DNA of 63,994 bases, filler included, from Globobulimina sp. (lineage: Eukaryota): assembly GCA_003354225.1 (NCBI GenBank). It is 9 parts of 9 records of this genome, joined end to end, with 100 filler letters (N's around TTAATTAATTAA, not from the genome) between each part and the next. Parts side by side here need not be neighbours in the genome. Positions count along the whole stretch, not along the records: positions 57,169 to 63,994 come from PIVH01000231.1; 8 more parts are not named here. One strand, given 5' to 3'. Position numbers and translations under genes: made by a program. The notes under the pieces are model-generated. The model saw only the letters and a list, made by a program, of their open reading frames with translations, searched no databases and was not told the DNA's origin. Of this stretch, positions 1-63,994 are shown in pieces. Each line of letters begins with the position of its first letter. Position 1 is the first letter of the stretch.

Positions 1-3000
1 CGCCGTATGGAGAGGAGCAGTGGTTGCCGCATATAACTTGCGTATTGAAGATAGAAACCATAGAGAAATCTATCCCCAGGCCGATGGCATTATATCTGTT
101 TCAGTCATAATATATCTACAAAACAAGACAATTTTATCGTGTTTCTAGACGGCAAATGCATAGAACAGAAACTATCCGTATCGTATCCTAATTTTTCCAC
201 TATAAACAACAATGGAATCTTCCCATTGCATATAGGTGGTTTTTATGGCGATATCGGACAGTCGTTCATCTATGAAACTTCGCTGAATAACTTGACAGTA
301 TCTGCCTTATATTGCGTAGGCGCCACATATAACCCACCCATATATAATCGCAGTGGTACCACCAACAATTACTTTGATCGCATCGCCGCCTTTCCACGCA
401 GTGTACGACAAAGAGCGGCTCCGATGCAGCCACGTAAATACGGCTTATGTTAGACATTATACGGCTTATATCGACGGCTTTGTGTCCATTATATTGGACA
501 CAAATTATTGGATAAAATCGCCGCAAAATGTGCAGAATATGGTGGCGCAATACATTCATACTTTGATTCAAACTCAGCCCAAGATAATGGCCAACTGTTT
601 GTCCCCAAGTTTGTCCCTAACACAAATATTCGATGCTTTTTACCAGCAATCGTTTTCCTTCCACATCAACGACACAAAGTAAGTACTATATGTATATCTG
701 ATGTGTTTTTAATACTAAATATATAAACAAAGAGTGCCCAATGCCACCGAGTCTCGCCACATAGCTTACAAATTGTTAGAATCCGCGGCAGCTTTGGCCC
801 GCTTAAAGCCGTCCACAATTAAATACAGCTCGCATCGCTCCATATCCTTATTAATCTCGCAATGCGTGGCCAAGGCCAAAGATCTACGCTGCCAAATCCT
901 CTCCACCTACGCAGAAATGTGCCACAACGCTCCCGATATCATGTTCACGCAAATGGCGCAAAAGCCTGCTTTTATCAAGGTACTATGGGATATTCTGCAA
1001 GAGAGCGACGCGGAGACCGACCACATCTCCAATCAAATCCTGACCGATACCCGCGTCAAGACCGCCAAGATCTTGATGGCTTTCATCGGCAATCAACGCA
1101 AAGTCTACAGCTCCATCACCAGTCCCACGCCCGTGGTCGTCTCCGTAGTGACGCGTAGCGGCCATGTACACAGATCCGCGTTGGACGAGCTAATCTTTGA
1201 GATCGGCGTCTCTTTAGGCTCACTGCCGCCCTCTTTAGCGTCCTATGCCTCGTTATTAGACATTGTGTTAGGCAAATTTAAGCTAAATATGCCCTCGCAT
1301 TCCAATGCCATTACTTCCTATATTCAACAGCATATCAACAGCAATAAGGAAGACAATGCGAAGCAGACCGAGCCGGAACAAAGCAACCCGGTGCCTTCAT
1401 TCTCGCGCAATAAGTCACTGAATATGAATATGATCCCTTTGGTGTCTGATAAGGATCAGATAAACTTAGTGGGCGCCTTGGGAGGTTTAATGAACTTAAT
1501 CTCAGTGAGTGCGTACAGAATACGCACCAGAATGCTGATGGATATATTGTCATTGGTCTAGACCAGCGATTGCAATCAGAAATTATTGTGCCGGCAACGC
1601 AATTCCTGGGACAAATGGATGGTGAATTTGATCTCATTGGAAGCGGATAATGACGACAGCAGCGCCTGCAATCAATTGGTGTCACAAATTGCGGCCACCA
1701 TTGTCTGGCGCTTTTTGATCAAAGACGATAAGGGTTGGATTTCTGTCATGCAGTTACTAGAGTCCTTAAATCGGAGAATATTGAATCTAATCCGTGCAGA
1801 AAAACAGATAGAAATACAACAGTCACAACAGCAGACCAATGGACATGGCCACGGCCACGAAGAGGAGCACAAACAAACCGCACAGCCGCATAAAATCTCG
1901 ACGGCAACGAAACTAAAATGCCGCGTATTGCACGAGTTTTTAGTACAAGTGTTGGTGTTGGTGCTGAATAGATTTTTAATGGACCAATTACGCTCCGACC
2001 ATGGACCCAAAGGCGGCATTATAAAACGTTCAAATATGAACGATCTATCCGACGCGTCTGAGAATATAAAATCGCGCACGTCTAAGAATTTAATATCCAT
2101 TTTGGATATCACTGAATGGGTATTATTCAATCACAGATTCAGTATGTTATCCATACCACGCATACGCTTGAAACAGGACGCCAAAGAAAGTGATATCACC
2201 GCGGAAATGTTATTTGATACTCCCGACAGTGACATCGACTACGAACCGGAGCAAATCCGCAATGAAATATTGTTATTGAAACGCTTATTATCCTGCTCGT
2301 TGAAGTTCATATCCTTCAAAAACGAGCGACAATTGGTATTGCGCCGATTGTTGCGATACTTAAAGGAAATATTACCGCACAAAGGCTGCCATTTAGTATT
2401 CGACGATGTGGTGAACGCAGCGCGCGAATTTTGTAACCGTTTGCAAACAGTGAGCAAACAAAAAGGCAAAAACAAACCGAAAATCTCCATCAAATCGGAA
2501 AACAATATGAAAACTATGCGCATTGCATACTCGTTTTTAAAAAATGCGTATTTACGCTATACACGCCGTGGCGATGACACTTCAGACAACAAAGCAAAGA
2601 AAATCCGCGCATTACAGGAGGAAGTGTATGCCTTTTGGGGCCCGTTGTTGTTTGAAGATAAAATCGATCCGAACACGGCCAATCAAATGAGTCTGCCCTT
2701 GATATCGGCAGAGGAGTCGCTGGAAAATGGGCAACATCACATCCATTCGTTGTGGGTGTTTTTGCAGCATCAGAAATGGTGGGAATACCAGTTCCAAGAC
2801 AAGAACATGAAGAAGTTCAAAATCGAGTATTCCAACCACGAGAAGGAAGAAAAGAAGAAGAAATTGAGCAACAAAGAGCAATTCGACAAGTATTACAACA
2901 GCTGCACCCACTCATTCTCTCAAGTGCACCACGCGGAAATCGCGCGCATCACTGATCTCAGCAACACCAAACGCAAAAACAAGCGCGACAATGTACGCGA

Positions 3001-6000
3001 TTTGAAGAAGTATATGGATTTCTTCGACGAGGACTTTCAATGTCGATTCCCCAATGCAGATACGCCTGATTTTTGGGAGTTGGATCCGCGCGAATCGGCC
3101 AATAACCACACCCGCTTATTGTTGGTGCGCAACTTTAAAGGCAGTAAGCATCTCCATGCCGCAGTCAATAATGGTACTCGCAAACGCGGCGTATCGCGAC
3201 CCGGTTCGGCCAGGAAAAGGAACAGCGGATCGAAGAAGCAGTGGTCGCAACTGTCGCAAGGCTTGCTGAAGGACTTGAAATTGCACGATGGCTTTCCGCA
3301 GCAGAGCCCGAATGCAATGCAGCCGCATCTGAGTGTGGAGTCCATACCGGAGGAGAAGGAGAAGCTAATGAGTGAGAGTGAGGAGGTCGAGCAGGAAGAG
3401 CAGAGTATGAGTGAGGAGGAGTTGGACGAGGAATATGTCGAAACGAATGAAAAATATCAAAGTGCCAATCTGAGTGGAAAGAAAATATTGTCGTCGTTGG
3501 ATGCTACGTCCATTTCCCCGTTTTTTAAGATTAGTGGCAAGATGTATGTGACTGAGCATCATCTGATATTTGAGGGACATGAATATATCGAAAATGTGCA
3601 TGAGCAGAATGCAGCGGATCAGATCAAGCTAACACAGCAGAGATACGACAGGGAGAAGAAGACCTTATTAATGGGCGGGAGTGACGAATATGAGTTGATT
3701 AAGCAATTAGAATCTGAAAATAAGCAGCAGTTTGAGGAGATATTGGCGTTTAAAGATAGCAATGTCGGCAATAATATCATCGAATATGAGATCTGGTCCT
3801 TGGCGCATATCAAACATTTATATCCGCGGAGGTACTTACTACGCGAGAATGGTTTGGAAATCTGGATTGCTGGCACGAGTCGCTCCTTTTTCTTTACTTT
3901 CAAGAACAGAAAGCGGCGCGGCGAGGTTATCTCTGCCATTTGCAAACATTCGCCGCGGTTTATCAAAGCCAATGCGAATAAGGATTTGCTGGTCAATCCG
4001 CTGAAGATGTTGAAACATGTCGGCTTGACGGAGAAGTGGCAGAAGCGCAAAATATCCAATTTTGACTATTTGATGGAGTTGAATGTGTTGGCTGGGCGCA
4101 GTTATAATGATATCACACAATATCCGGTATTTCCGTGGGTGTTGACAGATTATAATGGCGCCTCATCGGGTATTGATTTGACGGATGATAAGAATTACAG
4201 GGATTTGAGCAAACCCATTGGCGCGTTGAATGCAGACAGACTGCAAACGTACGTGCAGAGATACCAGGACTCATTGCAAGATACAAGCGACTCGTTCCCA
4301 TCCTTTTATTACGGCTCTCATTATATGTCTGCAGGCATCGCATTGTATTATCTGTGCAGAATGGAGCCATTTGCTACGTTGTACATCAATTTGCATGGCG
4401 GCAGGTTCGAGATCCCGGACCGGACTTTTTATTCCATCAACAATGCCTGGGATTTGTCGCTGAATAATATGGGCGATGTCAAGGAGCTGATACCGGAGGC
4501 CTTTTATTTCCCGGAGTTTTTGCGGAATATTAATAAGTTTCCTTTAGGTCACCGTTCAGGCGCTGACGGCAAGGAAGTGAACGATGTTGAATTGCCACTG
4601 TGGGCCAATGGCTCGCCAGAGGAATTTGTCCGGATTATGGGGGAAGCGCTAGAGTCAGATTATGTGTCCAGTAATTTGCATCATTGGATAGATCTCATAT
4701 TTGGTTACAAACAACGTGGGGACGCCTCGGTGACTGCGCACAATGTATTCTTCCATTTGACGTATGCCGGCGCAGTGGATCCAGATACCATCACTGATCC
4801 GACTATAAAGGCCGCCACGGAACAGCAGATCTATCATTTTGGACAGACGCCCAATATCTTATTTCATCATCCACATCCGCAGCGTGTGCATTTGACCAAA
4901 TGTTATTGGCTATGCGAGCTACATTTGCCCTGTAAAATGGACACAAAACTCGATATGTTGCATAAAAAGGAAGAGCATGAAGCACAACGCTCTCATTCCA
5001 GCCACAGTTCGCAGCAATCGATATCTTTGGATGAGCTCATCAATGAGACGGGAATTGTTAAAAACAAACCCTTCGTGATCTGTGAGTTTAAATTGGTAGA
5101 ACAACCCTCACATTTATCCATCGTCCGCAGTGGGCAATGTTTAAAAATATTCGACACTACAGAACGGATATTAACTTTTGAACTGCCAATGTTGGCGTAT
5201 TTAGATTACGCACAACCGGCTAAATCTACGCAGCTACGGACTATCATCGATACTGCGGCCACGCAGATACCGCCGGATTTGCCCATCTTTGAGTTGATGC
5301 CACCGGATTGGAGCGAGAGTATCATCTATCAAACGTTTGTGATATCCTCCAATGGGTTGTATGGCATTACTGGAGGATATCTGGACTGTTCTATCAAAGT
5401 GCATTGGTTGAAGGACGGCTCCACTTTGGCCTCGGTGACAGGATTAGAAAACGGACATAATGACATTATCACTTGTTTGGCATTGGATCATTCATCGCAG
5501 GATATGCTGATTTCGGGCGCCAAGGATGGCAGCATTGTGCATTGGAGCGCGATATTAAAGTCGGCAAAGCCAGGCAGAACGCCACTGATTGGCAAACCAT
5601 ACCGACTGCTGTCTATTCATTACGATGCGGTGCGAGTGATTGCGGTGAATAGCAAAGTGGGCATTATTGTGTCTGCAGCGGATGACGCGACCATTGCGCT
5701 ATATTCTATTGCGCGGAAACGGTTTGTCAGAGAGTTGCTGTTCGAAGGACGTGGCGATAGCACGCATTATAATTATGAGGTATTATTAATTGTTATCTCG
5801 GATAATGGATATATTGTCATACATTCTATTGATGAACGGATACCGTATTTGCGCGTATTGTCGATCAACGGCATCTTGATTCGCAAAATGAAATTAAATG
5901 AGATCTTATTTTCAATAAAAATTGATCAATCCAATAAGATGTTGATTTGTGGCGGCCAGGCATGCAAATTAACGTTTCGTTACATTCATAATCTAGAGAG

Positions 6001-6907
6001 CATTCAGGAAATGCCCATCATTGACATAAATGCCAGTGGCTCCTATCTCGCCAGTAATAAATATAAGAAACCGGCGTCGAGAAAAGCAAAGAAAAATATA
6101 AATGCGCAAAGTATTACAGATTCACTTCTGTTGAGTCCGCGGATTGATAAAAATAAAGTGAGTCATTCGAGTGCGTGGAGGCAGCAAAGATATTCGTTTG
6201 TGAATCGTGGTGATGGTGCCCAGCACAGCCGGAAAGGGTCGAAATCCAATGAATTATTTGGACAACGCAGATCGATGCTAAATAATAAAAAGAAGTCGAG
6301 CAAGTTTAACCATCTTGTTTCGCCACGGATTTCTACCCATTTTCATGGTAGGTTTCATTCCGTCGATGGCAATGCAATATTGTCGGAGTCGCGGATCATT
6401 GATTTTGATTTGGACCCAGATAATACATTTATTATTGTCGTGTTATTGAATGTGAGCATAAACGCAGTGCAATTATTAGTTTATCCGTTGCCGAATACCA
6501 GACATATTCATCAATTTAATAAATTTGTGTATTGTTCAAATAAAGTTTTACAAACTGCGAAAAATACCATATGGGAAAATATTATCAATGTGATTCAATC
6601 GGACCAATCGTCATCGACACCACATCACAATATGAAAATTTCAGAGCTATATTTCAAAAATAAATTGGATTCTACACAGACTTCACTTTTGTCGCATCCC
6701 TCATCAAAAGAAAAGATTGTTGAAACCGGCAAAAACATCATATCAAAACTTAAAAAAACTACCAATAAATTGTCAGACAGCAGCAGCCACCACAGCAACA
6801 ATAATAATAATAACAATCAACATAATAATAACGACAATAATGACTCCTCTTCAATAAATAAATTAGGGAATGCATTTAAATCTTTTTTGCCATGGAAAAA
6901 ACAGTGA
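1..6907 (+). CDS. BEACH-domain protein (neurobeachin/LRBA/LYST family): ConA-like region, PH-BEACH, BEACH and WD40 repeats; 5'-partial with disruptions near the 5' end
   Basis: BEACH signatures WQKRKISNFDYLMELNVLAGRSYNDITQYPVFPW, YGSHY, DVKELIPEAFY and WIDLIFGYKQ. PH-BEACH motif RRYLLRENGLEIW. WD40 repeats (GHNDIITCLAL, HYDAVRVIAV). GT-AG intron 679..732 joins ORFs 353..682 and 734..1561 in frame. An in-frame TAG at 1559..1561 separates that part from ORF 1586..6907. Probable frameshifts near 75 and in 330-440. Confidence 0.93.
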
Positions 6908-28684: not shown

Positions 28685-31600
28685 CGGCAGCGGTGTTTGG
28701 ACATTTTGTGGAATGTGGTTCAGGACGAAAGTAAATGTCAGCAGTTGATTGTGACGCAGGCAAAGGGATTGATTAAAGAGTGCTTGTCGTCGATATTCAG
28801 CCAAGAATTGCGACTGCCCACTATGCAGAAATGCATTGCCAATTTGAAACAGCACAAATCGGTGTGTTCCTCGTTGCAATTATTGGTGAAAATCATTGAG
28901 CTGTATCCGACCTCCACGCATATGAGCAATGAGCCAGTGAGGTGGACCATTATTGGCCACTTGCACGATGAAGAAAAATTATTGGATAACTTCTTTAATA
29001 ATATAACGCATTTCAAACAGCAGAAAATCAACAATATCGATGAGATCAAGGAGAGATTGCAGTTTTTGCAGTATGTGTTGAGTAACAATCATACCATCAA
29101 ATTGACGGAAGAGTTCGCCAATACGTTGTGGGAATCGTTTGTAGTGAACGCAGCCACCTCCAAAGAGCGCGAATTGACGTTCAATTCGTTCAAAAAGATG
29201 GTGCATTCTGGGCGCCCGTTGAAATATATTTATTTACAGCCCGATGTGCCGGAGATATTGTTTACGAATCATATGATGAAAGACATCCCCATCGAAGATA
29301 TGATGCAATGCGCCTACGACTGCTTTGAGCGCTACTTTGTGTTTGTGAATTGTCAGAAGAACTTCTTGCAAATGTTGGAGAACAATAAGCAATTTATGGT
29401 GAATAACTATGACCAGTTGGTGGGATTGGACATGTTATGGGAAATCGCCTTGAAATCCAAGAACGACATCGTACACAAAAAATCGACGGATATGATCAAT
29501 AAAATCTGCAATCGCGTGTCCGCCGAATTGAAATCTGAAATTGGCCGCATTCGCGCCACCGTTTTGGATAAAATCATGAACGAATTATTGGATTCATTGA
29601 ACAACCAAAACAACAATAAATCCGATCGGGTGCTCAATTTATTACATCACTTCTTAAATGCGTCAGAATCGCGCGGTATGGGCGGGTTGCGACCGCACGA
29701 CGCCTTAAGCCGCGGCAAGAAATGGCATTTGACCGTGATTGACAAGATCCATTTTAATGGCTATGGCAAACCGCCTCAATTTAAGATCACCATCCATGAA
29801 AATGACAGTTTATGGGATTTGCGCCGCGCAGTGGGTAAGAAAGCGGATACCTACCCCGAATTAGTACGGATATACTTCAAATCGCAGTCATTGAATGAGG
29901 ATAAGAACAGTTTATCTTTGCAGCAATTAAATATGCGCGATAACTGCACCGTGCATTGCATGAAAAAGGACCAGAAATCGGAACGGGTGCCATTGTTAAC
30001 CGGGACGCCGGCGAGGTTGGTGCAGCCGGCCAAGAAGGCATTGACCGAAGTATTCCAAGGCTTCGCCTCCAATGATGATAACAGTATGTCTTTCGACGAC
30101 ATGAAGCGCTATATTTTGAAATGTGGCGCCGGCGAGAATAGTGCGTCCAAGACGCGCATCCAAAGCATATTCACGCAACACGGCACACAGCGCAGTGCGT
30201 ATCAGGACCGCTTGTCTTTGCAGGGCTTTTTTAATTTTTATCGCAGTGCGTGTATGGACCGACCTGATCATGTCTGGAATGACTTGAATGTGTTCAAATA
30301 TAGATACGATTTACACAAAGAAGACGAGGCTAGAAAAGAGGAGGAAGCGCTGTTAAATGCGAAACCAGAGACGTTGCCGCGACACATATTGACTACAAAT
30401 AACAAGTATTTTGATATTTTATTCCAGAATTGCTTGCAATGCAACAACCAGAAAATCAAGCAAATGGCATGGAAGTTGATCTTGCGATTACCCACAAACC
30501 CCGGCAGGAAGAAGGAAATTATGCAGCTCCATCAAGGCGTCAATTGGGAGCAATTATTGCCGACTTCGTCCGACTTATTTAGCTTAGTATACGGTGTATT
30601 GATCTGTGAGTCGTTGACGATTGAGCCAGAATCTGCGATCAGTGACAGCGAATTGGAAGAACGGTGTAATTGGAGAGCGGCATTTTTGGAGGAAAAGGGC
30701 TTCGAGCATTTGATTAAAATCTTATTTTCATTCAAGTACAGCGGCAGTAATACCAGCATCAGCGACATAAATGAGAGCAAAACCGGCGATAATAGCGATA
30801 CAGAAAAGGTAACGCAACAATTGGCACTGACCGCGGTGTTGAAGATGATTCAGTCCTTTTTCGTGGGCGCCATCTCGTGCAATCAGTCCATGGTCGACGT
30901 GGTGGACCAGATTCGCTCGCTATCCATGGCGGTGAGTGAGGAGAAGAAAGAAGACGAAGTGGATGAGGCCAAAGCCAGTGGCAAAGCGCCCGAGAAGCAG
31001 AAAGAGAAAAGACACAAAAACTATGGACATGGTGCGGCCGGTGGCAGCGCCGAATTATATGACATAGATTACGGGTATTTAGTGTCCGATGACGATGACG
31101 AGGACGACGAGGATGAGAAGGACGCCACGGAGGATTTCACCGCGTTGTTGGTGCAGCAGTTCGCCGACGCCGTGATGAAAGAGAGCGGTATGCCCGAGTC
31201 CATGTACAATGACATCAAGAACGAATGGGCACAGTTAGAGGGGCTAACGAGTGGCATTGGTGGCGGCGAAGGCGGGGAGAAATTCATTGGGCCGCGATTG
31301 CCGCATGAAATGGGCCCAGGGGCCGGCGGTCAGGGCACTGGCTCAAGTGTAGGAGTATCGGATGAGAAGGATGGCAAAGAAGAGAAGGGGCCGCCGCGGA
31401 ACCAGGACGATGTCAAGAATTATGGCGCTGGCGATGACGATATCGATGTGGATATGATCAGTGCGGAGTTGCCGGAGAATGAGGAGGAGGAGGAAGACGA
31501 TGATAAACCGCCGCCCGTTACGCATAGACAGACCAGTATCAAATTCCATCAGTTGATACGCAATGTGACGGAGAAATATGCAGATTCGCTGCTGAATTCG

Positions 31601-34600
31601 CTGGATTTTAGCAAGTTAATGAAGCAGTTGTTGAATATATTGCGGGTGGCATCGTCGGATCAATCGCCTACGGTTCAGCGCGATTTGGTGGTACGGTATG
31701 CAGTGCGGTTATGGGTCTCTGTGTTGCTGTACAGACCGCGGCTGTTATTGGATTTATTTGAGTTTCTACGCAAAGACCCGTCGTTCATATTGGCTGCCAT
31801 TCAGTCGACAGACCCGGAATTGGGCTCTGAATTTGCGAAATCGATCCGGAAATTGTGTCGATTTGTGGATGAGTCTCCGAATTATAAATCCGATGCGGAG
31901 TTAATGGCGAAATTGCCGGGCATTAACATTGTGAAGTTCTTTTTGCAGGAGATATTATTAAATAATCTGCCCTCTGCCGACCAGGATGACATCGACCCGG
32001 AGCAACATTTTTATTTATTAATCTCGTTAATGCAGGAATACAGCGACAAATACAATGGCTCTGTGTCGGAATTCAGCGATTTATTCAAATATCTAACCAC
32101 CGAATTACACTCTTACCACAGCCGCGAGATGGAATATTCCAACGGCGAATCGGATAAGGTATTGGTGGGATTAATGACTTTATTGTCGGTGTTGTTAGCG
32201 GGACATGTCCCATATCGCCAAGAATGTGGCAAATTAGGCATCATTGAGGAACTATTAAATAAATTCCTATTTGCCACTGGCAAAACCGATGCGGATAAGA
32301 AAGAAAATTTACCCAAATGCAAAACCAAAACCAGTCGCGAATTAGCGTACCGATTGGTGGTCCAATGCATCATTGGCGTGCCACAAAATTATGCCATTGT
32401 CAATAAAATATTATCCTCGTTACATAAGACGGTGCGCACACCTCCGGCCTGGGAATATTGCCCCGAAAAGTCTGTGAAATCGGATCGCGGCTTTGTGGGC
32501 TTAAAAAATTTGGGTTCCACCTGTTATATGAACTCGTTATTGCAGCAATTTTATATGATTCCGCATTTCCGCCACGCTCTGATCACTTCCGGCGTGGAAT
32601 TAGCCGATAAGATCTCGGACGATGAGGCCAAAGAATCGCTGTTATTCCAATTAATGCGCATGTTTTCCTTCCTGTCCTTGTCAGAGAAACAGGCCTTTGA
32701 CACCATCAATTTTTGCCGCGCCTATAAAGACGAGACTGGCCGCCCCGTCGACGTCCGGATCCAGCAGGACGCGCAGGAATTTTTTACCATTTTGGCCGAC
32801 CGCGTAGAGACCGAGTTAGCCGATACAAAGTATAGATATTTGTTGCAGGACATCTTTGGCGGACAAGTGGTGCACCAAATGATCTGTCAAGGCGGCTGTA
32901 ATAAGACTCGTGAGCGAAAACAGCCGATGCCGATGATATCGCTACCCATCAAGAACCGGACCAATATGAAAGAGTCGCTGTTAGCCTTCGTGCAATCGGA
33001 GTCTTTGGACGGTGTCTCATGCGATCACTGTGCCAAAAAGTGCCAAACCCTGAAACGCCAGGTACTGCATACATTGCCCAACACGATTTTCTTCCATTTG
33101 AAGAGATTTGAGTTAAATTTCGAGACTTTCCGGCACGAGAAATCCAACCAACGCTTCGAATTCCCCACGGAAATCTGCTTAGAGCCCTATACGAGAGAGG
33201 GATTGAAGCGCATTGAAAAGGAGAAGAAGAAGGGCGATGATGAGAAAAAGGAGGAGCAGAAAGGTGACGAAAAGGGCGATGATGCGGATATTTATACGGT
33301 GCATCCCAAGGAATATTATGCGTATCAATTGGTGGGCATTGTAGTGCATACTGGCTCTGCCGAGGCGGGCCATTATTACTCGTATATTAAGGACCGAGTG
33401 ACCGACGAATGGAACGAGTTCAACGATTCGTTGATCAAATCCTTTGATTTGAAGTTTTTAGATAAGGACTGTTATGGTGGCAAGAAAAAGGTGAAATCGT
33501 CGGCGAATTGGGGTGGTGATTGGGAGCACGATCAGGATAAAATCAAAAATGCCTATATTTTGGTGTATGATCGAAAGAAATACTTCGAGCCTTTGCATGA
33601 TGAGGATAAGAAGGAAGAGGAGGAAGAGACGCCGGCGCCGAAGAAGGAGCAAAGTGACAGCAAACAGGAACAGGATAACAAAGAACAACAACCGGAGCCA
33701 GAGCCGGAGCCCGAAGCAGTTGAAAAGACAGAGGAAGAGAAGGAAAAGAAGCCGTGGCCGCCAGCTATTAACGTATTGTCCTTATATGATGCCAATGTGC
33801 AGGAATATGTGGAGAAAATACCCAAAGTATGGGACGATATCTTGGATACAAACATGAAGTTTATGCGCGATCGACAGCTGTTTAATTTGCAGTATTTCCA
33901 GTTTATATATAACTTAATTTGTGTGGCTCCCACGCCGCAACGTATGCAAATCGAAGAGGATGACAACAAAGCGGAGGATAGCAATCCCGGCTTGGCGGTG
34001 ATCCAAATGGCTACGTTTGTGTGCTTTCGATTTTTAGCGCGGACCGCGGAGAAACGGGAGATATTTAACCGCTTTGTGACGTATTTAAAGTTTTTATATT
34101 CGTCCAATATCGTAGCGTGTAAATGGTTGTTGCGGTATTTGTCGACGCAGCGACAATATGTGGAGCAATATATATTGACCACGCGCGATCAGTTAGTAAT
34201 GCATGGTTTTAGTGACCTCATCATTCACGTTTTGACCCAGTTAAAGGACATCGAAGCGACGCAATTGTTGGACACTGAGACGATTATCGTCAAGAAAAAG
34301 TTGGACAAAAATAGTGATACTATGATCGAGCAACAAGTGGTCGTATCGTCGTGCTCCTGCAGCAAATTCATGGATTTGATGATCTCGTTAATCGACGTTG
34401 CGCCCAAACATTGGTTCCGCTTTAATTATTATTTCAAAGTCTTTTTCGAATATGCCAACATGGGCTATGCCCAACGAAACTATTTGATCGATAAGCAGAT
34501 GATCAACATTTTGGGTGACTTTTATTTGGGCGGCAATCGCTCGCCGTATGCCGACGGCAAAAAGCAATATCATATCATGGGTAATCGGATGTATCCGCCC

Positions 34601-35717
34601 AAATTCGATACGGTGGTCCAGATCATTTGCACCTTGTTATGTGCGTGTCACACGCCGCAAACTAAGAAGTATTTGAATTTTTATCAGAACAAAGCAAACC
34701 AAGACGAGTTTATAACGGATAAAGTGAAGAAAGGATGGTTGCAATTGTCGCCCACGGCGTTGTCGTATAAGGATCCGTTGAATAATCCAAACGACGCAGA
34801 TCGAGAGTGTTTGCATGCATTATCCGATACGGATGCAAAGTTGCCGCATTCTCGCCATTTGTATGACAAAATGATCGCCGAAGCGCATCACAGCACGGTG
34901 ATATTGGAGGCGTTGAACAAATTGGTGGTGCATTGGTCGTATGAGGATAAGACGTACAGCGAAGAGGTGATCCGAATGATCACGGAAGGAGTGGATAAGA
35001 GCGGTGCCGATCAAGTGCGGACATTCTTGTCCATAATGCACAAGTTTGTGATGATTGAGGATGGCCAACAGGAATTTCGATTGAATCAATTACATTCGCC
35101 CGCAGCGGACGGCAGCAATAAGGGCGTGTTGCATTTTATAAAATGTTATCGATTACAGCATCAACCATTTAGCTATGAGTCCATCAAAGCATTGACGTTA
35201 ATGATGATTGAGTCTGATAAGTATGCGGAATATATGATAGCTAAAAGGAAAGAGTGGGTGTTTTGGGATACGTGGTTGGATAATTTCTGTCATAGACCCA
35301 CCTATGTACATAATCAAAATAACCAACGATTGACCGCCGCAAAGATCGCATTTTATAAAGAAAAGTATATCCCATTGTTGAAGAAACATGGCATTGAATG
35401 TCAGAGAGCGCAGCATTTACAACATTCGCAGCATCATAATCCAAATTATGGCCACGGCCATGGTCATGGTGGACATGGCGGCCATGGGCACGGCGGTAAT
35501 TATAATGTGTATGACAATTATTATGGTACACAGCAAGGCGGTCATCATGGCCATCATGGTCCGGGTGCCGGCAATCAAAATATGTATGGCGATGCGTATG
35601 ATGCGACTGGCGCACAACGGCAAAACTCAAGAGATAACGACTCGGATTTGTACGGGCATCATAATGAGATTAATATTAATGAAGGCGGCCGGAATGAGAA
35701 TGATGGTGACAATGATG
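28685..35717 (+). CDS. large ubiquitin-specific protease, USP9X/USP24/USP34 family; partial at both ends
   Basis: Cys box GLKNLGSTCYMNSLLQQ, QQDAQEFF, FHLKRFE, His box HTGSAEAGHYYSYIK, WNEFND, NAYILVY. Upstream Ubl-like segment. The frame is open across the whole contig. Confidence 0.95.
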
Positions 35718-50331: not shown

Positions 50332-53300
50332 AACAAATACATTTCGTGACACTCAAAAACTTTTACAGATCCATTATAAAAACCATTCATCTCAAAACAA
50401 ACTCTGCCTTAATAAATGAAATACTGTGCACGCTTTTTAATGTCTGGAATAGCACATATTGCATCCCGTATTACTTCCGCCTGGGCTCTATAATCCCGAT
50501 ACTAAAAACACCAAAAGGATGCACGCCAAACCAGTATCGTCCCATAACTCTCCTACCTATAATATTTAAAGCGTACGAAAGATTGGTACTGTGGGAAATG
50601 TGCATCAAATACAAGTTCCGAGCAAACCTGCATATCTTGCAAGGTGGCAACCGCTCTAAGAGAGGTGTGCCAGAACAGATAGGTGCACTAAACTTAATCG
50701 CTGAGACTGCCAAAATGCGTGATGTCCCTCTATACTGTGCACTGTTGGACATACGCAAAGCCTTTGACACCGTTTGGAGGAAAGGCCTTATATAAACTGC
50801 ACCACGACTTCGATATTCCTGTCCATATTTGCAAAATAATAAAAGCTATTTATAATGATTCGCATGCGGCAATACGTGACATTCCATTCATATCCAATAA
50901 ATTTATACTGCATAACGGAGTGTTGCAGGGATCTGTGCTATCTCCGGTGTTATACGCCGCGTTTCTAAATGATATGATCTACAAACTACAGGCCTCCGGG
51001 AATGGTGCTTTCTCGCCCAATGAAAATGAAAAAATAGCATGTAAATAAAATATCGCACCTGAATAAGTCAATAAAAATATGTGAGGAGCACAGCGTTAAA
51101 TGGAATTATCGATTCAATAACAAAAAATGTATGACCATGATATACAATGACGATTCAATCAATAAAAACAATCTCAATACGTACAATATAAATGATATAA
51201 TCCTAATAAACCATGAATACCATGAAACTGATGCAATACACAAAAATAAACCCGCTCCAATGATACTAATACAGAAACCGATAAACAATCAGATATTGGC
51301 AGTAAATATACATAACCAAATCCAAGCATACAGTAAAGAGGAAATACCCCCAAATCATCTAAAAATGTTCCTAAATCATATTAGTTTCTATAATGACATT
51401 ACAAATAAACCATTCCCGACAATGTGGAATAATATGCGTTATGATCGCACATTTACGATTAAACAATGAAAGACTAAACTGCACAACATTCATGCGGTAC
51501 TTAGGTGCCATGCTGTGCAGCTATGACGCCACGAACTTAGTCTCCACTGAATACACCAATAAACACTTTCTGAAAAAACTTGACAACAAAGCCCGTATAT
51601 TATCTGCATTGGATTTCAATCACGAGTATATATCCCTTGACGATAAAATCCGTATACTAAAAACGTTTTATTTGGTTTATACTGAGATCTTCGCTCAGGT
51701 CCTGGACAGTGATCAAATAAACCTAAAAGAGGCGACGCAAAAACAACTTGAAGCGATACGTAGACAGACCAATATCAAAAAGTTTATTCCAAAACAACTT
51801 TATCTGTGGGCTGGAATACCCACACCATCCGAAAGATGGATTTCCTTGAAACTTGTCTTTTATTGGAAACTACTAAATATGCCCAATGTCTCCTTAATTG
51901 CATAAATGGGCGCAACTGTCGCATATTAATCACCATAAATTATATAAACAGTATGCAGCGTTGAGAGATAGATGGCTGCCGCCAGCCAACCAAATAGTAC
52001 ATAATGGTGTCCAAATGATAGATCCCTTTGAAAGTGTTGCTGAACAGCATGAGCTACGACCAATTATAATAAAAGCGCAGCACAAACACATCCTAAGCAC
52101 GTTAAATGAATATCACCCTCTAAAAATAATTAATCATATAACAAGTGATTATAAACCAATGAATATGTATGAAATGGAAGAATTAGCGGATTATATTAAA
52201 TTAACAATGATTGAATCTTACCGTGCGTTATTCTATAATTTTAACCAAAAAGATCCATTCTGTAATCTATGCAATTGTAATATTAACAAACCATTGGAGC
52301 TGCACCTTGCAGTACTTTGTCCCATATTGAATGAACTACGCCAAGAATATTGGTATCATGCGAGCTTCACCTTTGCCAAAAATGGATCCGAGATAAACAA
52401 AATCCACAATCAACTGTATATGCAGAGATTGATTGAACTTTGCCGTAATGTTAATGTCAATAAATCGCAATTCTGGAAGCTTCTCTGTGGCGCCAATATC
52501 TACAAAACAGAGTCCAATGAGTTTGTATACCAGCACCAGCAGATAAATATAAATATCAACAAATACACTTTATATCGCAATTTAATATCCCAAACACACC
52601 GATGGATCCATAATGTATACCGCATCAATCAGAACACATTGAACTTAAACAGAATGAGAAATCAGCACATAACCATGATGTCCATGATGCCATTATACCA
52701 TACACGCAGCAGAAATATCAGAGAATGGAACGCTGCTAAACATCGATTAAAACAAAGTGACCTCATAATAGCCACAGACTCCTCACATGAACCAAGGACA
52801 AATACCACGGGAATTGGCATTTTCATATTAGATAATAATACAATTCACTGTTTTGCACAACCAATTGGTGCCCAAACTAATCACTTTGGCGAATTATTTG
52901 CGATCCATAAATCCAAATTCCTTATCAATTACTGTAAGATTGATACAAGCAATCGCAGGAAAGTCATATTTACTGATTCTTTGTATAATTTTATGCCACT
53001 AATAACTACGCCTCGCAACCTAGATAAATTAGCACATTCTAATCTGTTCATAAACACACAAAAATACATAAAAAGAAGTGAAAGTATATTATGGAAAGTA
53101 AAATCCCATACCAAACCAAAGCAGCAACCATTTAATAATGTAGCAGATAAACTAGCAGAGATTGGAAGAATGCATTCCAATAACTCAAACTATATCGATA
53201 TCACTTTTAACTCTGTACAATATGCCAAATACAAATCATTCCACTTTACAAATGGTATCTCCTTTGATACCATAAACAACCTCGCCGGGATGTTCAAGCA

Positions 53301-53360
53301 ATCGGTGAGTATGGAGCCAGACTTACTACCTGGCTGAATGTGCCCCTACTACCATTAAGT
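50332..53360 (+). mobile_element. 5'-truncated, frameshifted non-LTR retrotransposon (LINE): RT, CCHC zinc knuckle, RNase H
   Basis: YRPITLLPIIFKAYERLV, LLDIRKAFDTVWR, GVLQGSVLSPVLY, KWNYRFNNKKC, RYLG; CNLC..HLAVLC; RNase H IATDSS/GELFAI/FTDS/KVKSH/NNVADKLA. About four frameshifts; the YADD motif is missing. Confidence 0.93.
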
Positions 53361-55837: not shown

Positions 55838-56051
55838 AGTAAACAAAAAGATATTATGTTTATATTTTATATTATGTAGATAATGGGATATAGATAATGT
55901 ATATGCCGAAGTGGGCAATTATGACTTTACATGGTCCTCCAAATCATCTAAATTTAAATCAAACGATGGAACTTCAGTACCATTGAAATGTCAGTACCAT
56001 GTGTATTGGTGGTGGTTATCGGTGAAACAGTTTTAAAAAGATTTGATTTAA

Positions 56052-57068
56052 TTGGAACGATGCTTCGGCTTCACGCATTGGGCTGGAAATATGGCCGGCG
56101 ATGGTCCTCAATATGGCAAATTCGATGGCAGTCCGTCATTGAGCGGCGGCAGAGATAAGACCGGACCGCTCGCGATCTACAACGCAGCAATGAGTAATGC
56201 AGTGGTCATCTCCGCATTGACGAATCATATGACAATGTCCGATTACACCAAAACAAACAGCAACAGACAGAAGGAAATCCAGTGGGGCATCATTGGTCAA
56301 GTGGACGATGTGGCAGTTGGCTTTAATACGTCGTTTATAATTGCCACCCATCCAAACGGTGGAGGAGTAAATCGTGCTTTTCAAGCTTGGGGTACTATGA
56401 TTTAAACAAATATTTTTATTTATATGTTTATATATATCTGTGTGTTTTAATTTTATTTCAGGTGATCGCCAGTTGCAATATTATGGCAAAAAAAGAGGTA
56501 ATGCGCATTCCAGAGATTATACACTTCAATATATTGGATATTCCACTGATAATGGTATGTTTTTTAGCCTTTTTGTAATAAAAAACAATGTAATATTTTT
56601 CATAATGTATCGAAAACGTTGAGGTGCGTACTATTATTACGAGACTGAGCCAAATAAGAATTATCAAGAAACCATGATTGATGTCAAAAATTATCATAAG
56701 CAGATCAACGTACCCACAAAATGGTTATTATTGGATTCCTGGTGGTATTATAAAGGTGTTATATTATTCATTTTTGCCGTATATTATATTGACTGTAAGT
56801 TCTAAAATAAATAAGGTGTGAACAATGGCGTTAAGAATTGGACTGCAATGCCCTCAGTTTTCCCAGGCGGAATCAAGGCTGTTCAGCAGGCGACGCAATG
56901 GAAAATCCAAGCTCATAATAGATATTGGGATATAGATAATGTATATGCCGACAACATACCAAACCAACACGAAGTGGGCAATTATGACTTTACATGGTCC
57001 TCCAAATCATCGTTGCCGTTAACTAGAGCTTTCTGGAAATATTTATTCGATGCAAATACTGATTGGGG
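56052..57068 (+). CDS. putative glycoside-hydrolase-like protein, partial, multi-exon
   Basis: Introns 56392..56461, 56555..56623 and 56756..56815 give a continuous frame: ..AWGDRQLQYYGK..IGYSTDNGAYYYY..LLDSWWYYKGVNNGVKNW..VFPGGI..AHNRYW. Confidence 0.7.
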
Positions 57069-57168: not shown

Positions 57169-57380
57169 GGTGAAATAAATCCGAATGAACAAAGTTGTCA
57201 GATGCTTTATTCTCCGAATCGATCCAATGATATTAAAAACATAGTTAATAATTTGGATCTCCTCCCTGTGTGTCCCCTGTGTGTTGTGAAGGTCTATTTA
57301 AATTGTAAAGTTTCTTTCAAATTAAATCATCGAACGTGTAAATAGCAAATGGTAGTTATATGTCAACCAACTTATATTGA

Positions 57381-58669
57381 TTAATTATTTGGGTTAAATA
57401 ATTGTTCACAAGTTTTGCCTTCCCAGAGATTATATGTTACTAAATTCTTACGACTCCTATCAATGGTCATTGAGCCTGGGCGATTTCTGCCATGAATCAT
57501 CTCAAAAGGTACTATCCGTAGGTCTTTAATCTTGAACATGATATAACGATTTTGTACGTGTGGTAAATTGTTAACAGACCAAACCACATATCGTAAAACC
57601 TTCAATAAATCAATTTTTTGTTGATGACATAAGGAAGTTGCTCCGATTCGTATACAATATGGTGGATATGCTTTCGGCTTTTTAATTTTTAAAACTTTCA
57701 CAAAATGTTTTAAAATTTCCGCCAATTTGGAAGGGCGCCATATTACTCCATTTAATCCTACAAAGACATAATTAAAGTGATTTGTATTCAAATTACAAAC
57801 TCGTTTAATTAATTTTTTCTTTCGTTTATTTTCTGATATTGATAATAGTTTTGAATTTAAATGGCGATGTATGACTCTTCGCCTGTTTAAAAGCACCATA
57901 TATATTGCATAGAAATCCAAGTACCGACAATGACAATTTTTTACGTTATGGCATATTGGCGGAGACATATAAATCCGCTTTGGTTCACCTCTAAACTCCT
58001 GGTTTTTATACCAATGAACCAAGATTTGTAAATATTGTCTGTGATATGGTTTGTTTAAGTTATGCTGTGAAATATCACCCCATCGTAAACCTGTGGTTAT
58101 ATTCTCCCAATCCGCATTTTCTGTACTGTCGGTATACAAAATCTCTGCGGGACGGCTTATAGTGAAAAAGCATATTAATAATAATAATGCTCTTGTCAAG
58201 GATTCCAATGGGGCAATTTGCCATGTTTCAGGGGTAATATTTATAAATTTTAAATAATCCACCAACCAATAAATCCGCATTGGTAATCGAATTTGTCTGG
58301 GTTTTTTATATAATTTCAACATGGTGGTATGGATTGTATCATAAAACCCATCTTCATAAAAATTAGGTTTCCCTCCACATGATTTGACCCACCAAGATAA
58401 GGCCGATGACCATGTTTTATGCGAATTGCACGATCCCAAACGTATACTACGATCATATTGCCAATATATTGCAAATGCAGGATTTATATTTGGTAAAAAT
58501 GGATTCTGTCCATGCTCGATATTGTAACCCCACCAATCCTTTAAAACTGACACATAATTTGTTTTTGTGGTGATTCTCCTGCTTCTGAATATATCTATTA
58601 AAATCCGTTTGGTAGTCGTCGGGTCATATTTTGCTACTTCACGATTCCAGAAGACTCGGCGTGTTATTC
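57381..58669 (-). CDS. tyrosine recombinase (YR) of the retrotransposon
   Basis: LLICFFTISRPAEIL (catalytic R), LRWGDI, WYKNQ (K), YCIRIGATSL (HxxR position), VVWS and NRYI (W, Y). The frame is open up to a candidate acceptor at 58670. Confidence 0.88.
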
Positions 58670-58806
58670 CTGAACAAATTTCATACTATTTTATATATAT
58701 TATAAGACGGAACGTGTAAAAGCGTTTTTGTTAAATAAACAGACACTGCTACAGTTTTTAAGTCAGTTCACTTCAAATCAATGTCAAGAAGGTGGTCGGC
58801 AGTTGG

Positions 58807-60542
58807 TTAGTTATATAGATTATGTAACAATCTCAGATTAGGATAATATTCCAATTTAGATTGATTTGCATTAATTTCCAAATCAAACATATCCACAATT
58901 CGATGAAATCTTGCCATCTCAAATCTGGATAAAGAATCAGCTAAACCGTTGAAATCAGATGGGATGAATTCTACTCGTAAATCAATACAATAAATACACA
59001 TTAAAAGTACAATTTCTTGTATATACTGCATCAATTTTGGGCTGCCTGCCCAACATTTATAGATACTGAAAAGCACAGATTTATTATCAATATATAATAA
59101 TAGTTTGCGCCCAGTTAAAATATCTCTATAATTGTATAATAGCATAATTACAGCATGAGCTTCTTGATAATTAATGGACATTGTTCGATGATTTATATTA
59201 TTTATATTTAATTTATTTAAGAAATGATAATTCGCAAAATGTGATCCTACGATAAAGCCACCACCTTCGTTACTTGCATCCGTTGCACCTGTTATTGTGA
59301 TTGATGGTTGATTTATGATTGAATGCATAGTAACGGTTTGCATATGCAATGTATATTGTAGCCAAAAACGTAAATCCTGAATTATAGGATCTGGAACCCA
59401 AAATATTTTATTTTTCATTCTTGGATTCTTACGGATTTTTTCATGAATCAAGCGAAGTAATCTGTAGCATAGGATTTTGGCTGATTTTCTGAATTGTGCC
59501 CAATGCATTATTTTGCCACAAATGGATTCTAATGCATGTCCTGATGCATATCGATGTAGTATTATTAGTTTTATTCCATGACATAATTGTTTATATTTAT
59601 GAGTCGGTATGTGTACATTTTTCAATTTTAAATTAAAACCAAAACCATGTACAACACCCTCAGTTATAGCCGTTTCATCCTTTGCATGAGAAACATTTAC
59701 TTTTAAATCATCACACATTTGATCAAATTTATGAGCCATTTCTTTTGCTTCTCTCTCTGAATGAGAGGCAATTAAGAAATCATCAATGTGTACTAAAAGT
59801 CGATCTTTCTTTAAGAAATGTAAATATTTATTCTCAAAAATCCAAATTAAAATCTGTGCAAAGTGTTGACAATTTGCGGCTGCTGACGCTAAGCCATATG
59901 CTTGGCGTAGATCACCAAAAGAAAGACCAAAAATGCAATATTGGATAAATTCACAATCATTTGAGGCTAATTTTAATTGTCTAAAAGCATCCTTTAAATC
60001 ACGTAACGAAACATATTCATATTTTATTAGGATTTCAATATATTTTCGGATATTTGGAAGTGTTGGGATTTTGCATTTTTCTTTCTCAATCAATTCGTTT
60101 ATGGATACTGTCCTCTGAGTGCTATATGAACCATGTCTGGCAACTCTGATTTCAGTCATTTGTTGTGTATCATTATTTCGTTTTGGTACACATAATAAAT
60201 TCAGATTATAATGGAAAGTCTTATGATTTGCAGTGATATAACTTTTCTTCGCTTCTTTTACTATCCGATTCAAAATTTCTTTCAATTCCTTTTTATTTCT
60301 AACAATATTTGATACATGTTTTGATAGTTTGGATGGGTCGCGATCTTTCAACCATAATGGATATCCATCCTCAATTAACACAATTTCTATGTCTCCATTT
60401 GGGTGATCGCTTAAATAGTCACGGAATAAATTGATATTAAAATGATGAGGGATTTCCGGCGGATTTATCCATAACTCTACCAATTCTTGGAGTAGATTGG
60501 CACAGTCATCATCAATATCGCGTAATTTTGGTAGTATTGTTT
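58807..60542 (-). CDS. reverse transcriptase + RNase H of the retrotransposon
   Basis: CVPKR, SLRDLKDAFRQL, QAYGLASAA, VHIDDFLI, LESICGKIMHW; RNase H ATDAS, INYQEAHAV, YIDNKSV, NGLADSLSR. The frame is open up to a candidate acceptor at 60543. Confidence 0.94.
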
Positions 60543-60795
60543 CTATATATTATTGGGTTTATATTATTGTATACGATTATAAATATAATTATTGATTATG
60601 AGTTATTTTTGTTGAGTGTAAATATGAGTCACCACGTTGACTCACTTTTACATAACGATTTTGAGTCAATAGGAACAGTTATTTGTTAGTTATTTGTTAA
60701 GTGTTTCTAACTTGATACAAACTAAACGCTTATGTTGGAAAAAATGAGTTAGATTTAATAAATCAAGGATTTTTATTTTAAAATTTAAATATATT

Positions 60796-63700
60796 TTACG
60801 AGAATATTTTCGGACAATTTGGGATGGTGTGATTTGCGTCACCACAAAGACAATCATGATATCGCTCAACACCGCCATTTCTGCATCTTGGTCCTCTTGA
60901 GACACAATTTTCATTTGGCATATGATATGCAGCACAATATCGTCCTGTTAATTTACGTCTAAAATCCTCTTTTAATTTAGGACGTGTAGTTATCATCCAA
61001 TCCTTGAATCGTTGTACTCTCCGTTCCTTTTGTTCTGATGTCAATCGACCACCATTTGATTGACTCCGACTCATTAATTTATTGGGAATGCGATCAGATA
61101 CATTTACATTTTGAAGCGACTCATTTTGCGTATTATTGTCGTTCCGCAAATGTTTCTGCGTTTTTATGAATTTTACATGGTCATAATCTCGGAACATCAG
61201 TTGTAACCACATAGGGTCAACATAACGCGATCCTTTTTTCTCAATTTCCAAATTTGATCTAAGATGTGAGTCTTGTATTGCTATCACAATTGACTTTGTT
61301 TGCCTCATTGCAGTCTCCATTGATTCATTGATAAATAAATAAAATAATTGTTCATTTAATTGAACATCAAAAATTAATGTATTTAATGCAAATTTCCATT
61401 GTTGCCAATCATTTATTGCAACATTTAACATTCGATTATATCTCGCAATTTCATCCAATGGTTTTATACGGATCGCTTTCTTTTTATAAAGCACTTTCAT
61501 TGAACGTAATAATTCCGATTCGTTGTTATTTACATATAATTGCCATACATTCAGAAGACGGAGGACTTCATCGCCAAATAGGAAGATATTTCTCTTTTGT
61601 GTAAATATCGTATTTATTGTTGTTGTGGGATTTGCTCGGACCAAATGAGTTGAGTCCTTCGCATTTTTTAAGACTGCCAACATGATATCAGTGAATTGTT
61701 TGGGTGAACATCGCCAAATAAACATCAAAACATCAGTCTCCGCATCGTATCGTTTATCTTTTGCGGATTTTTTGCCTTTCTTTTTCTTCTTCGGAGTTTC
61801 ATCACTGTCATCCGATTCTATTTAAATCACAACAACAAAAACAATCAAATTCATTCTAAGATTATGATATTTTGTGTTGACCGGTAAACAACATTCAATG
61901 CACGGTATCACATTTTATATTGTTACCTATTGGTCAGATACACAACTTTTTATATTTTTAATTTACATTTTTACGATTTCTGAGTGATAAATTGTGAAAT
62001 TTTATGTATCACTCTCATTGTGAAGATATGATGAAAAAAACGTTTCTGATTCAACGTCTTACAAACAATACAAAAACGTTTTATTACTCCAACTAAAAAC
62101 GTTTTCGTTCTGAAATCTACGAATTTACTCAAAGTCTGACCAAAGCCATACAGTTAGATTGTATACAAACTCATTCTATACACGGCTCACATGTAAAGGA
62201 GACAGATCCACAAACCTTGAATATTATCGACAATCGCTTTGTTGCTACCGCTATTCATCATATCTTGATATACATTTTGGTGATTTGACACTTGTTGTTG
62301 TTTATTTGTATATTTGCCAATTAATTGAAAACCAAGTGTGGTTTTATGGACATGATACTCTTTACTCCACCTTTCCATTCCTCGTTGTGTGTCTTTCAAC
62401 ATTTCATCCACGGACTGTTTCTGTGGTGATTTCTGATTTGACGAATTCGAGTCTTGTTTTGATTGCATTATACCAAATTGATTGGATAATGTGTTTATTG
62501 CTGGGATGATATCTTTGGCCCATTCTGGACACTTTGAAGGAACGCGATATTTCGAACTGTCCTTCTTATCATTCTCTATTTCATCATCATCATCGGAATA
62601 AATCTCAATTAAACGGCGTTTTTTCTTCGGAGGGATATAATCCAAATCATCCCATGGATCACGAATTCGTTTCTCTGAGTTCTCTGCTTTATCACCAATG
62701 AATTTTATTTTTCCTTTCTTTGTTTGATATAATTCGCTCGGAATCACATCCAAATCCTTATAATTTTTGATACGTTCACCAGCTTTGTTTATATATCCTT
62801 TCTTTTCAAGGAATATGTACTGTTTATAATATGTGTCCACAATAACATTTTTTGTTTCGTCTTCACTCAAATTCAATAAACGAATAAATTTCTCGGCTGC
62901 TGGTGGTAAATGATAATAAACCCGATAATTTACCAAAAATTGTGTCATCCGATGATTATACGCATTAAATTTGTGCTTGACATCTCCATATTTGATGGAA
63001 TCCTTTTTCTCAAATTGTCCGATGTTTTGAATCATTTCTTTTCTGTATTTAATTACTTTTTTAATTCGGGCTTTCCAATCAGATTCATATTCTTTTGATT
63101 TGTCAGCCTTTACGAAATTCGAATCTTTGAATTTCTTTATTCGTTTTTTAATTTGATTCACATCGTTTCCACGCTTATTCGCATCGACTTCATCCTTTCT
63201 CTCAATTTGTATTATATCATCTTCCACATTAAAGACACTGTCATTGTCCGATTCTTGTTCATGAACTGGAGTCGCTTCCCGATCGTTGTCATTGCTCTTA
63301 CCATCACTGTCCGAAGAGTCTGCGTCTCGACCTATCGCATGTTGTGGTGGTACGTCATTGGGAGGATTTGGAAAATCCCAGTTATCGACGTGCGCACCAA
63401 TATCAATTTCGTTATCACGTTTATCCCAATTCCTCTTCCTTCTGACCGATAATTCCTTATCGAACCATAAATCATTTGCTAATAAATCCACAATTTGATT
63501 ATGTTGAGGTTTCTCATGATCTTCATGGTCTTCCTCAAATTTCAATGCTTTTTCATATGCATCATTGAGGTCAATGAGTTCCCCTTTAACACCATTGGAA
63601 TTTCCATATGGATTTATCAATTTCTGTTTAACCATCGCAGCAATGGCCGCTATGGTTTCACTTGAAATGCCACCTCTTTTTGCTGCAGATTTAATCGGTT

Positions 63701-63803
63701 TTATTATTAAATAATGACCAAATTCTGCCTCTGGTGGGTATTGGAATTGATCATTTGGTACATGTGTACCATTGACATAAGTGTGATTTGGCTGGTCTGC
63801 CAT
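60796..63803 (-). CDS. gag-like ORF1, two predicted exons (63803..62216 and 61817..60796), 869 aa, with C-terminal Cys/His zinc fingers
   Basis: ATG at 63803. Phase-1 intron 61818..62215 (CAAG|GTTTGT...TTTAAATAG|AA) joins ORFs 62187..63836 and 60796..61728 in frame. C-terminus CAAYHMPNENCVSRGPRC..HDCLCGDANHTIPNC. Confidence 0.75.
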
Positions 63804-63994
63804 CTGACGCTGAGGACTGCTTTGGTTAGTTTGCAAGTTTGCTTTTTGTTTACGACGACGGTATTGATGACTAGAGTGCTTTTTGAGTTTAGGTAAAATC
63901 TAAATATCAAAAACACTTTTGAACACAACAATAGTTTGTTCTCTTCTGTCATATTCAATACCGGGATGATTTCTGTAAACCGAAATATCCACAA

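Follow-up and report, generated by a model that had tools for sequence, protein, structure and literature searches.

How can the downstream genes of a retrotransposon be translated when only its first frame carries a usable start codon? This question is raised by a stretch of 63,994 nucleotides (nt) from Globobulimina sp. (assembly GCA_003354225.1), referred to here as the window, in which nine contigs are joined end to end. The last contig (PIVH01000231.1, positions 57169-63994) is occupied by an element that is almost certainly a tyrosine-recombinase (YR) retrotransposon. Four co-oriented, stop-free frames were found on its minus strand: frame A (63899-62187, 570 codons, ATG at 63803), frame B (61821-60796, 341 codons), a reverse transcriptase (RT) plus RNase H (RH) frame (60549-58807, 580 amino acids (aa)) and a YR frame (58685-57381, 434 aa), giving a domain order of gag-like, RT/RH and YR on one strand. 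A sequence-only reading of this DNA had counted three open reading frames (ORFs). Its co-oriented, stop-free RT/RH and YR frames were borne out by a Pfam match of the third frame (RVT_1, E 1e-6; RT_RNaseH was weak, E 0.011) and by the match of the YR fold model to Cre recombinase (E 3e-7), but its gag block proved to be two frames, A and B. The element is an intact YR retrotransposon of a divergent, unnamed Ngaro-like clade. It probably uses the host spliceosome, and not frameshifting or overlapping frames, for its downstream genes, a reading to which we give a probability of about 0.7.

A usable ATG is found in ORF A and in no other frame. In the RT and YR frames Met first occurs at codons 131 and 122, respectively, and both fall well inside regions conserved in the respective families. 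The gene calls of 71 RT relatives begin anywhere from before the acceptor site described below to position 92, indicating that no start codon is conserved. The spacers between the frames (365 nt between A and B) are AT-rich and contain stops in all three frames (8, 14 and 8 per frame between A and B, 9, 6 and 9 between B and RT, 1, 5 and 5 between RT and YR), which excludes a simple frameshift. The B, RT and YR frames each open at a phase-1 YAG (61818, 60543 and 58670), preceded by AG-free stretches of 38, 98 and 16 nt, respectively, and all three join ORF A in frame, in the same phase.

These acceptors were compared among relatives with a residue-pair test, in which a phase-1 acceptor read as protein shows up as an xYA-encoded residue and, directly after it, one whose codon begins with G. 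The YR search gave 134 representatives, of which 46 carried the anchor motif after two false motif matches were dropped and 15 reached far enough upstream. Among these 15 (19-54% identity), a compatible pair was present at the offset predicted from the window in 12 and within one residue of it in all, against a background of 0.10. For RT, 50 of 83 relatives aligned at the anchor, 23 reached far enough upstream, and 19 of the 23 had a compatible pair within three offsets (background 0.11). Before the site, F, Y and C abound among the residues, whereas D and E are almost absent (F 11.7 versus 2.6%, D 0.6 versus 7.5%), as expected of a translated pyrimidine or AT tract. At the first position of the pair, residues as different in chemistry as S, T, L, I, V and A occur, all of them YA-compatible, and alignability stops right there. 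Moreover, scans of metagenome contigs, viral contigs and prokaryote genomes returned one related DNA locus, L001, from the metagenome contigs and none from the other two. Its RT is 55% identical, and the TAG of the window is replaced by CAG at the aligned position; the alignment begins at this point, the 58 nt before the CAG are AG-free, and no in-frame ATG lies upstream. It is highly likely that RT and YR are reached by cis-splicing. Judged from sequence comparison, splice-based expression is probably in use, with strong indications at the RT and YR acceptors and faint ones at the donor and the B acceptor. As a separate observation, the spacer before the RT acceptor of this related locus (L001:250-430) carries several imperfect ATTTGAA(T)-like repeats and then a C-rich stretch.

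A donor for these acceptors was required to be in phase 1 and downstream of the ATG, and ORF A holds 27 such GT sites. Two relatives of ORF A were available for comparison (P0234 and P0235, 41% and 44% identity), which share its starting Met and align along it. The two sites with the top consensus score, 5/7, are at 63301 and 62215. The candidate considered first, G/GTAAGA at 63301, was rejected, being kept in neither relative. At 62215 (AAG/GTTTGT), P0234 reads QGKW, which is compatible with a perfect donor, and P0235 is apparently frameshifted before this point. Joining 62215 to 61818, 60543 and 58670 gives open frames of 869, 1107 and 958 aa, respectively. Short host GT-AG introns with similarly loose donors were found in a heuristic search. 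The site at 62215 is somewhat favoured as the donor.

In the proposed mechanism, a single transcript would serve unspliced both as genome and as mRNA for ORF A. A phase-1 donor in ORF A, most likely 62215, would be joined to one of the three acceptors, and the products would be, in the order of the lengths above, a Gag with finger (A+B), A+RT/RH and A+YR. The common A part may assemble the particle and carry both enzymes into it without a protease. RT would copy the unspliced RNA to cDNA, which would be circularised and then integrated by YR, as is known of the class. Reverse transcription, a circular intermediate and YR-mediated integration are described for the class in passages of PMC5633606 and PMC7192593.

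Several points weigh against this reading. No spliced molecule was seen. The proposed introns are 0.4-3.5 kb long, far above the host candidates of 56-118 nt. The donor at 62215 (GTTTGT) is a weak consensus match, and at ten phase-1 sites further upstream both relatives of ORF A are also compatible with a donor, which makes the donor position uncertain. The W and C after Gly562 are common to P0234, so the frame could still be coding there. The ORF B acceptor is read from this copy without comparative support, and a phase-0 TAG lies 16 nt upstream of the YR acceptor. The p values of the pair tests (4e-10 and 2.5e-7) are overstated because the relatives are not independent. Four of the 23 RT relatives were missed, three having the pair a few residues further in and one having none. 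Conserved protein motifs peak too (RT offset -10, 31/41; YR offset -22, 11/28), indicating that the pair test alone is not specific.

The uncertainty at the donor bears first on the possibility that splicing is real and starts from a donor near the beginning of ORF A, or from one in the leader past the window. In that case B, RT and YR would gain a short leader peptide, and ORF A would be the full Gag. We regard this as unlikely. The acceptors are much better supported than the donor, and the ten upstream sites that fit both relatives include Ser80, Arg161 and Gly374, scoring 4/7. The nine contigs are about 7 kb each and of falling size, and if this order holds up to about 180 nt of the last contig would lie beyond the window. 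However, the early site with the best consensus is the rejected one at 63301, the sole phase-1 site with an upstream ATG in the visible leader is weak (TGT/GTTCAA), and the similarity of P0234 reaches the Gly562 site, with both frames ending 8-9 codons later.

Expression without any splicing is improbable. Here a polycistronic RNA would be translated, RT and YR being produced by non-AUG initiation, reinitiation or ribosomal shunting, and the residue pairs would reflect protein constraint; that the spliced form was not seen and that conserved pairs arise elsewhere for protein reasons are consistent with it. The chemical variety of the first pair residue under preserved YA compatibility argues against such a constraint, as do the end of alignability at the site and the CAG of L001 in place of TAG, and the stops in all three spacer frames exclude simple frameshifting. 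Very improbable is a series of short introns whose removal would yield a single polyprotein of A, B, RT and YR, or trans-splicing of a spliced leader that would cut a polycistron into separate mRNAs: a GTGAGT at 60645 would make a 103-nt intron of host size and phase-1 GT sites are found near the end of ORF B, but the frame upstream of 60645 has no ATG, the last phase-1 GT of RT (Gly535) precedes the invariant D538, S541, R542 and Y568, so that an RT-YR join would cut RNase H, donors within the spacers mostly have no upstream ATG (9/11 between B and RT, 6/6 between RT and YR), and a non-coding trans-spliced leader would neither give a start codon nor fix the phase.

Splicing in cis from a shared ORF A exon can be tested precisely and cheaply at the three junctions predicted from one donor. 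If it is true, a retroelement that lacks a protease would run a retrovirus-like splicing programme and deliver each of its enzymes as a Gag fusion of its own. ORF-based annotation would then truncate such proteins, in line with the scattered internal codons at which the relatives' gene calls begin, and the named families would lack a large clade. Should splicing fail, the element would still belong to a Ngaro-like family that is divergent but otherwise ordinary.

The proteins of the element were characterized. RVT_1 was matched by 45 of 54 aligned RT family members and RT_RNaseH by 43 of 54. The RT frame stops about 38 residues past the RNase H motif DSLSR and therefore has no methyltransferase (MT), and none of the 54 members matched Dam, in agreement with the absence of MT read earlier. 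At the RT active site (59788-59774, minus strand), HIDD or HVDD replaces YxDD in 64 of the 76 rows of the RT tree, and YIDD is present in 7; this replacement may affect RT fidelity or processivity. The fourth frame is, on its fold model (pLDDT 91; TM 0.72 to Cre, on target), a Cre-fold tyrosine recombinase in place of a DDE integrase. Pfam gave nothing above cut-off for frames A, B and YR of the element, and Phage_integrase was matched by 7 of 39 aligned YR members. The YR residues are R178, K227, Y-x-x-R (343-346) where H-x-x-R was expected, and Y381, their catalytic roles being read from the family pattern and not from a residue-by-residue superposition. The recombinase of a Cafeteria Ngaro has H-x-x-R in the passage of PMC8547959.

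ORF A is a conserved coding sequence, although it belongs to no Pfam family above cut-off. Its fold model was unusable (pLDDT 35), and its relative P0234 had no usable Atlas match. The last 25 residues of P0235 resemble the +1 frame of the conserved ORF A end, suggesting from the protein that this copy is probably frameshifted. Upstream of ORF A, a T-rich tract with TAG was observed at 63900-63930 (minus strand), in phase 0 and 97 nt before the ATG, which could end an intron in the 5′ leader. In ORF B, the compound Cys/His finger of the earlier reading is present as a nine-residue cluster (C296, H300, C306, C313, H322, C324, C326, H331, C336), which presumably resembles the finger of Ngaro ORF1. 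No ORF B homologue was found among 641 candidates.

A search with the RT gave 88 proteins; identities were 30-72% for 83 of them and 19-24% for the other 5. The RT tree contained 76 sequences of at least 480 aa, the window included, after 13 shorter matches were dropped, and the stem of the RT family was 2.58 substitutions per site long, with a local support of 0.87. With the nearest outside proteins 19-24% identical and a stem of this length, a divergent lineage is supported, as had been proposed. A name look-up of 20 proteins gave no informative name and no named family. Thus no described family came up that would contain the RT, in a tree whose other sequences all lack family names and which holds no named Ngaro, PAT or DIRS sequences. 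The closest outside RT, P0086, was matched with an HHalign probability of 99.8 over 491 columns; its grouping is with RT clusters, all unnamed, from molluscs, basidiomycetes, cnidarians and oomycetes (TM 0.78-0.84), and it is less close to a Dam-bearing cluster (0.70). According to passages of PMC3783388, the host range of Ngaro is similar to that of these animal, basidiomycete and oomycete clusters. The RT belongs to a large unnamed clade that is Ngaro-like by architecture (no MT, domain order, non-overlapping frames), and the grouping of P0086 and its host range give indirect support for a place near Ngaro. One ORF A relative and the RT relative at 72% identity come from contigs that are both 6559 long, a hint of linkage. 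Unlinked frames in other copies, which the sequence-only reading had named as a counter-sign, did not appear, and the linkage rests on that one match.

No direct or inverted terminal repeat pair was found in the 6826 nt of the element, both ends of which are cut, as the earlier reading had stated. Repeats inside the element were at chance level, no second copy was present within the window, and Rfam gave no match at E 0.1. Among the sequencing runs listed, X1 was the single one to carry the element, and no RNA run was among its carriers. In run X1, depth was 61.8 in the last bin and 40.3 in the first, versus 17-30 in most others, and a long X1 contig stops at 63866 and 57258. The rise in depth and the contig breaks at both ends fit terminal repeats, and they also fit other copies. 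X1 covered all 30 bins, with long contigs at a depth of 11-22, although X1 may be the source of the assembly and not independent support, and contig depth is not copy number. Of the 120 contigs aligned to the element, 74 were less than 90% alike, indicating that many related families share the X1 sample. Run X2 gave nothing and run X3 only four short pieces, and among the 15 joints listed of 23 from runs X1-X3 none matched a predicted splice. The 11 differences picked by eye (from 40 of 233 listed) as apparently belonging to the near-identical long contigs comprised 6 silent changes, 2 Asp to Glu changes and 3 in spacers, a pattern that fits a second allele or a close copy under constraint. 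The claim that the copy is young finds its sole support in the intact frames.

The features of the element are collected in the table. Elsewhere in the window, a decayed LINE was located at 50334-53337 (plus strand), where pieces of RT lie in changing frames and precede a frame of 479 codons that has an RNase H-like end by eye and no Pfam match; its frameshifts agree with the decay noted before. Two near-identical stretches, at 55900-55940 (GGATATAGATAATGT...) and 56930-57000 (GAAGTGGGCAATTATGAC...), are separated by about 1 kb within a host gene with introns, which suggests local duplication. Very long intron-free host frames were also observed, at 1562-6907 (plus strand, 1781 codons, BEACH-domain-like) and 28685-35717 (plus strand, about 2370 codons, USP-type deubiquitinase-like), both labels being assigned by eye.

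Table. Features of the YR retrotransposon, in transcript order (window coordinates).
Feature	Position	Strand	Basis
5′ leader, truncated at the window end; possibly holds part of a terminal repeat	63804..63994	-	No long frame; no match to the 3′ tail
Frame A from its ATG (ORF A, 538 aa); Gag-like by position; proposed shared 5′ exon	62187..63803	-	Two relatives
Candidate phase-1 splice donor AAG/GTTTGT at A-frame Gly562; the intron would begin with base 62215	62210..62218	-	Inferred
Proposed intron 1, 398 nt; holds the A-B spacer, T-rich tract and TAG at its end	61818..62215	-	Stops in all frames; in-frame join
ORF B, basic/acidic N-terminus, C-terminal Cys/His finger; putatively nucleocapsid-like	60796..61817	-	Sequence reading
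Compound Cys/His finger, residues 296-336 of the B frame	60814..60936	-	Spacing read directly
B-RT spacer, ending in predicted phase-1 acceptor ATATAG at 60543	60543..60795	-	77% AT; comparative residue pairs; L001
Reverse transcriptase and RNase H, active site HIDD; no protease, no MT	58807..60542	-	Pfam, alignment, tree
RT-YR spacer, ending in predicted phase-1 acceptor TTCAG at 58670	58670..58806	-	Comparative residue pairs
Tyrosine recombinase, predicted Cre-like fold	57381..58669	-	Fold model, family alignment
3′ tail, truncated at the contig end; possibly continues into a terminal repeat	57169..57380	-	No repeat partner in the window

The element was then compared with known systems. It shows the traits of the order DIRS, namely an RT/RH ORF and a tyrosine recombinase instead of a DDE integrase. 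The combination of RT and YR had been presented as a novelty, but it defines the whole order. In VIPER elements YR precedes RT, whereas here YR follows RT/RH. VIPER/TATE elements are otherwise described as YR retrotransposons without MT and with split direct repeats (passages of PMC6681497 and PMC3266345). DIRS-like and PAT-like elements resemble the element in having RT/RH plus YR, no DDE integrase and no protease (in part of PMC3783388). However, in DIRS-like elements RNase H is followed by an MT of the Dam type, in Xenopus about 284 aa long (in part of PMC9210276), which is absent here, and they have overlapping ORFs, inverted repeats plus an ICR (internal complementary region). PAT-like elements are marked by split direct repeats and an RT sister to that of DIRS-like elements, and the RT tree leaves room for a PAT-like placement. 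Ngaro-like elements share the order of gag-like, RT/RH and YR on one strand, all co-oriented, and the lack of MT after RNase H, and their frames are usually non-overlapping (passages of PMC3266345 and PMC8547959); on domain order, MT and frame layout, the element is closer to Ngaro than to DIRS, as had been suggested. The Ngaro passages on ORF layout describe no splicing. Unlike in Ngaro, spacers separate the four frames of the element and three of these frames begin at phase-1 acceptors, and it has HIDD/HVDD for YxDD in RT and Y-x-x-R for H-x-x-R in YR. Ngaro-like elements also have split direct repeats in the arrangement A1-ORFs-B1-A2-B2, of which no pair was seen between the cut ends of the element.

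Introns in some YR elements are said to have been reported by Goodwin and Poulter in 2004, which would lower the novelty of introns as such. That review and Poulter and Butler 2015, the two key reviews, lay outside the literature search, whose passages contained no report of splice-dependent expression in YR retrotransposons. The same passages give YR retrotransposon ORFs as overlapping, in frame or frameshifted, and are silent on the translation of a start-less pol or recombinase frame. Passages of PMC12477816, PMC3212892 and bioRxiv 10.64898/2026.05.21.726589 are further literature for comparison. We put forward tentatively, at slightly less than even odds, that the element represents a deep undescribed YR clade, which could rank as a further group beside DIRS, PAT, Ngaro and VIPER and whose whole proteome would come from one Gag exon by alternative 3′ splice-site choice. 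Gag would thus be fused separately to the finger, to RT/RNase H and to the recombinase, with neither frameshift nor protease needed, and the splicing ratios of the host would set particle stoichiometry and could switch transposition on or off. The closest parallels are the spliced long terminal repeat (LTR) retrotransposons Ogre, EVADE and Cer1 and the subgenomic mRNAs of retroviruses, which share the scheme of an intron that is either retained or spliced. Unlike the element, these rely on a DDE integrase, and their Gag-Pol polyprotein includes a protease. None of them is known to join RT and integrase separately, by splicing, to one shared Gag exon. In Ogre, EVADE and Cer1, introns are kept in the genomic RNA and spliced out for particular proteins (passages of PMC12786077). 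By analogy, the element most likely works like the spliced LTR elements and retroviral subgenomic mRNAs.

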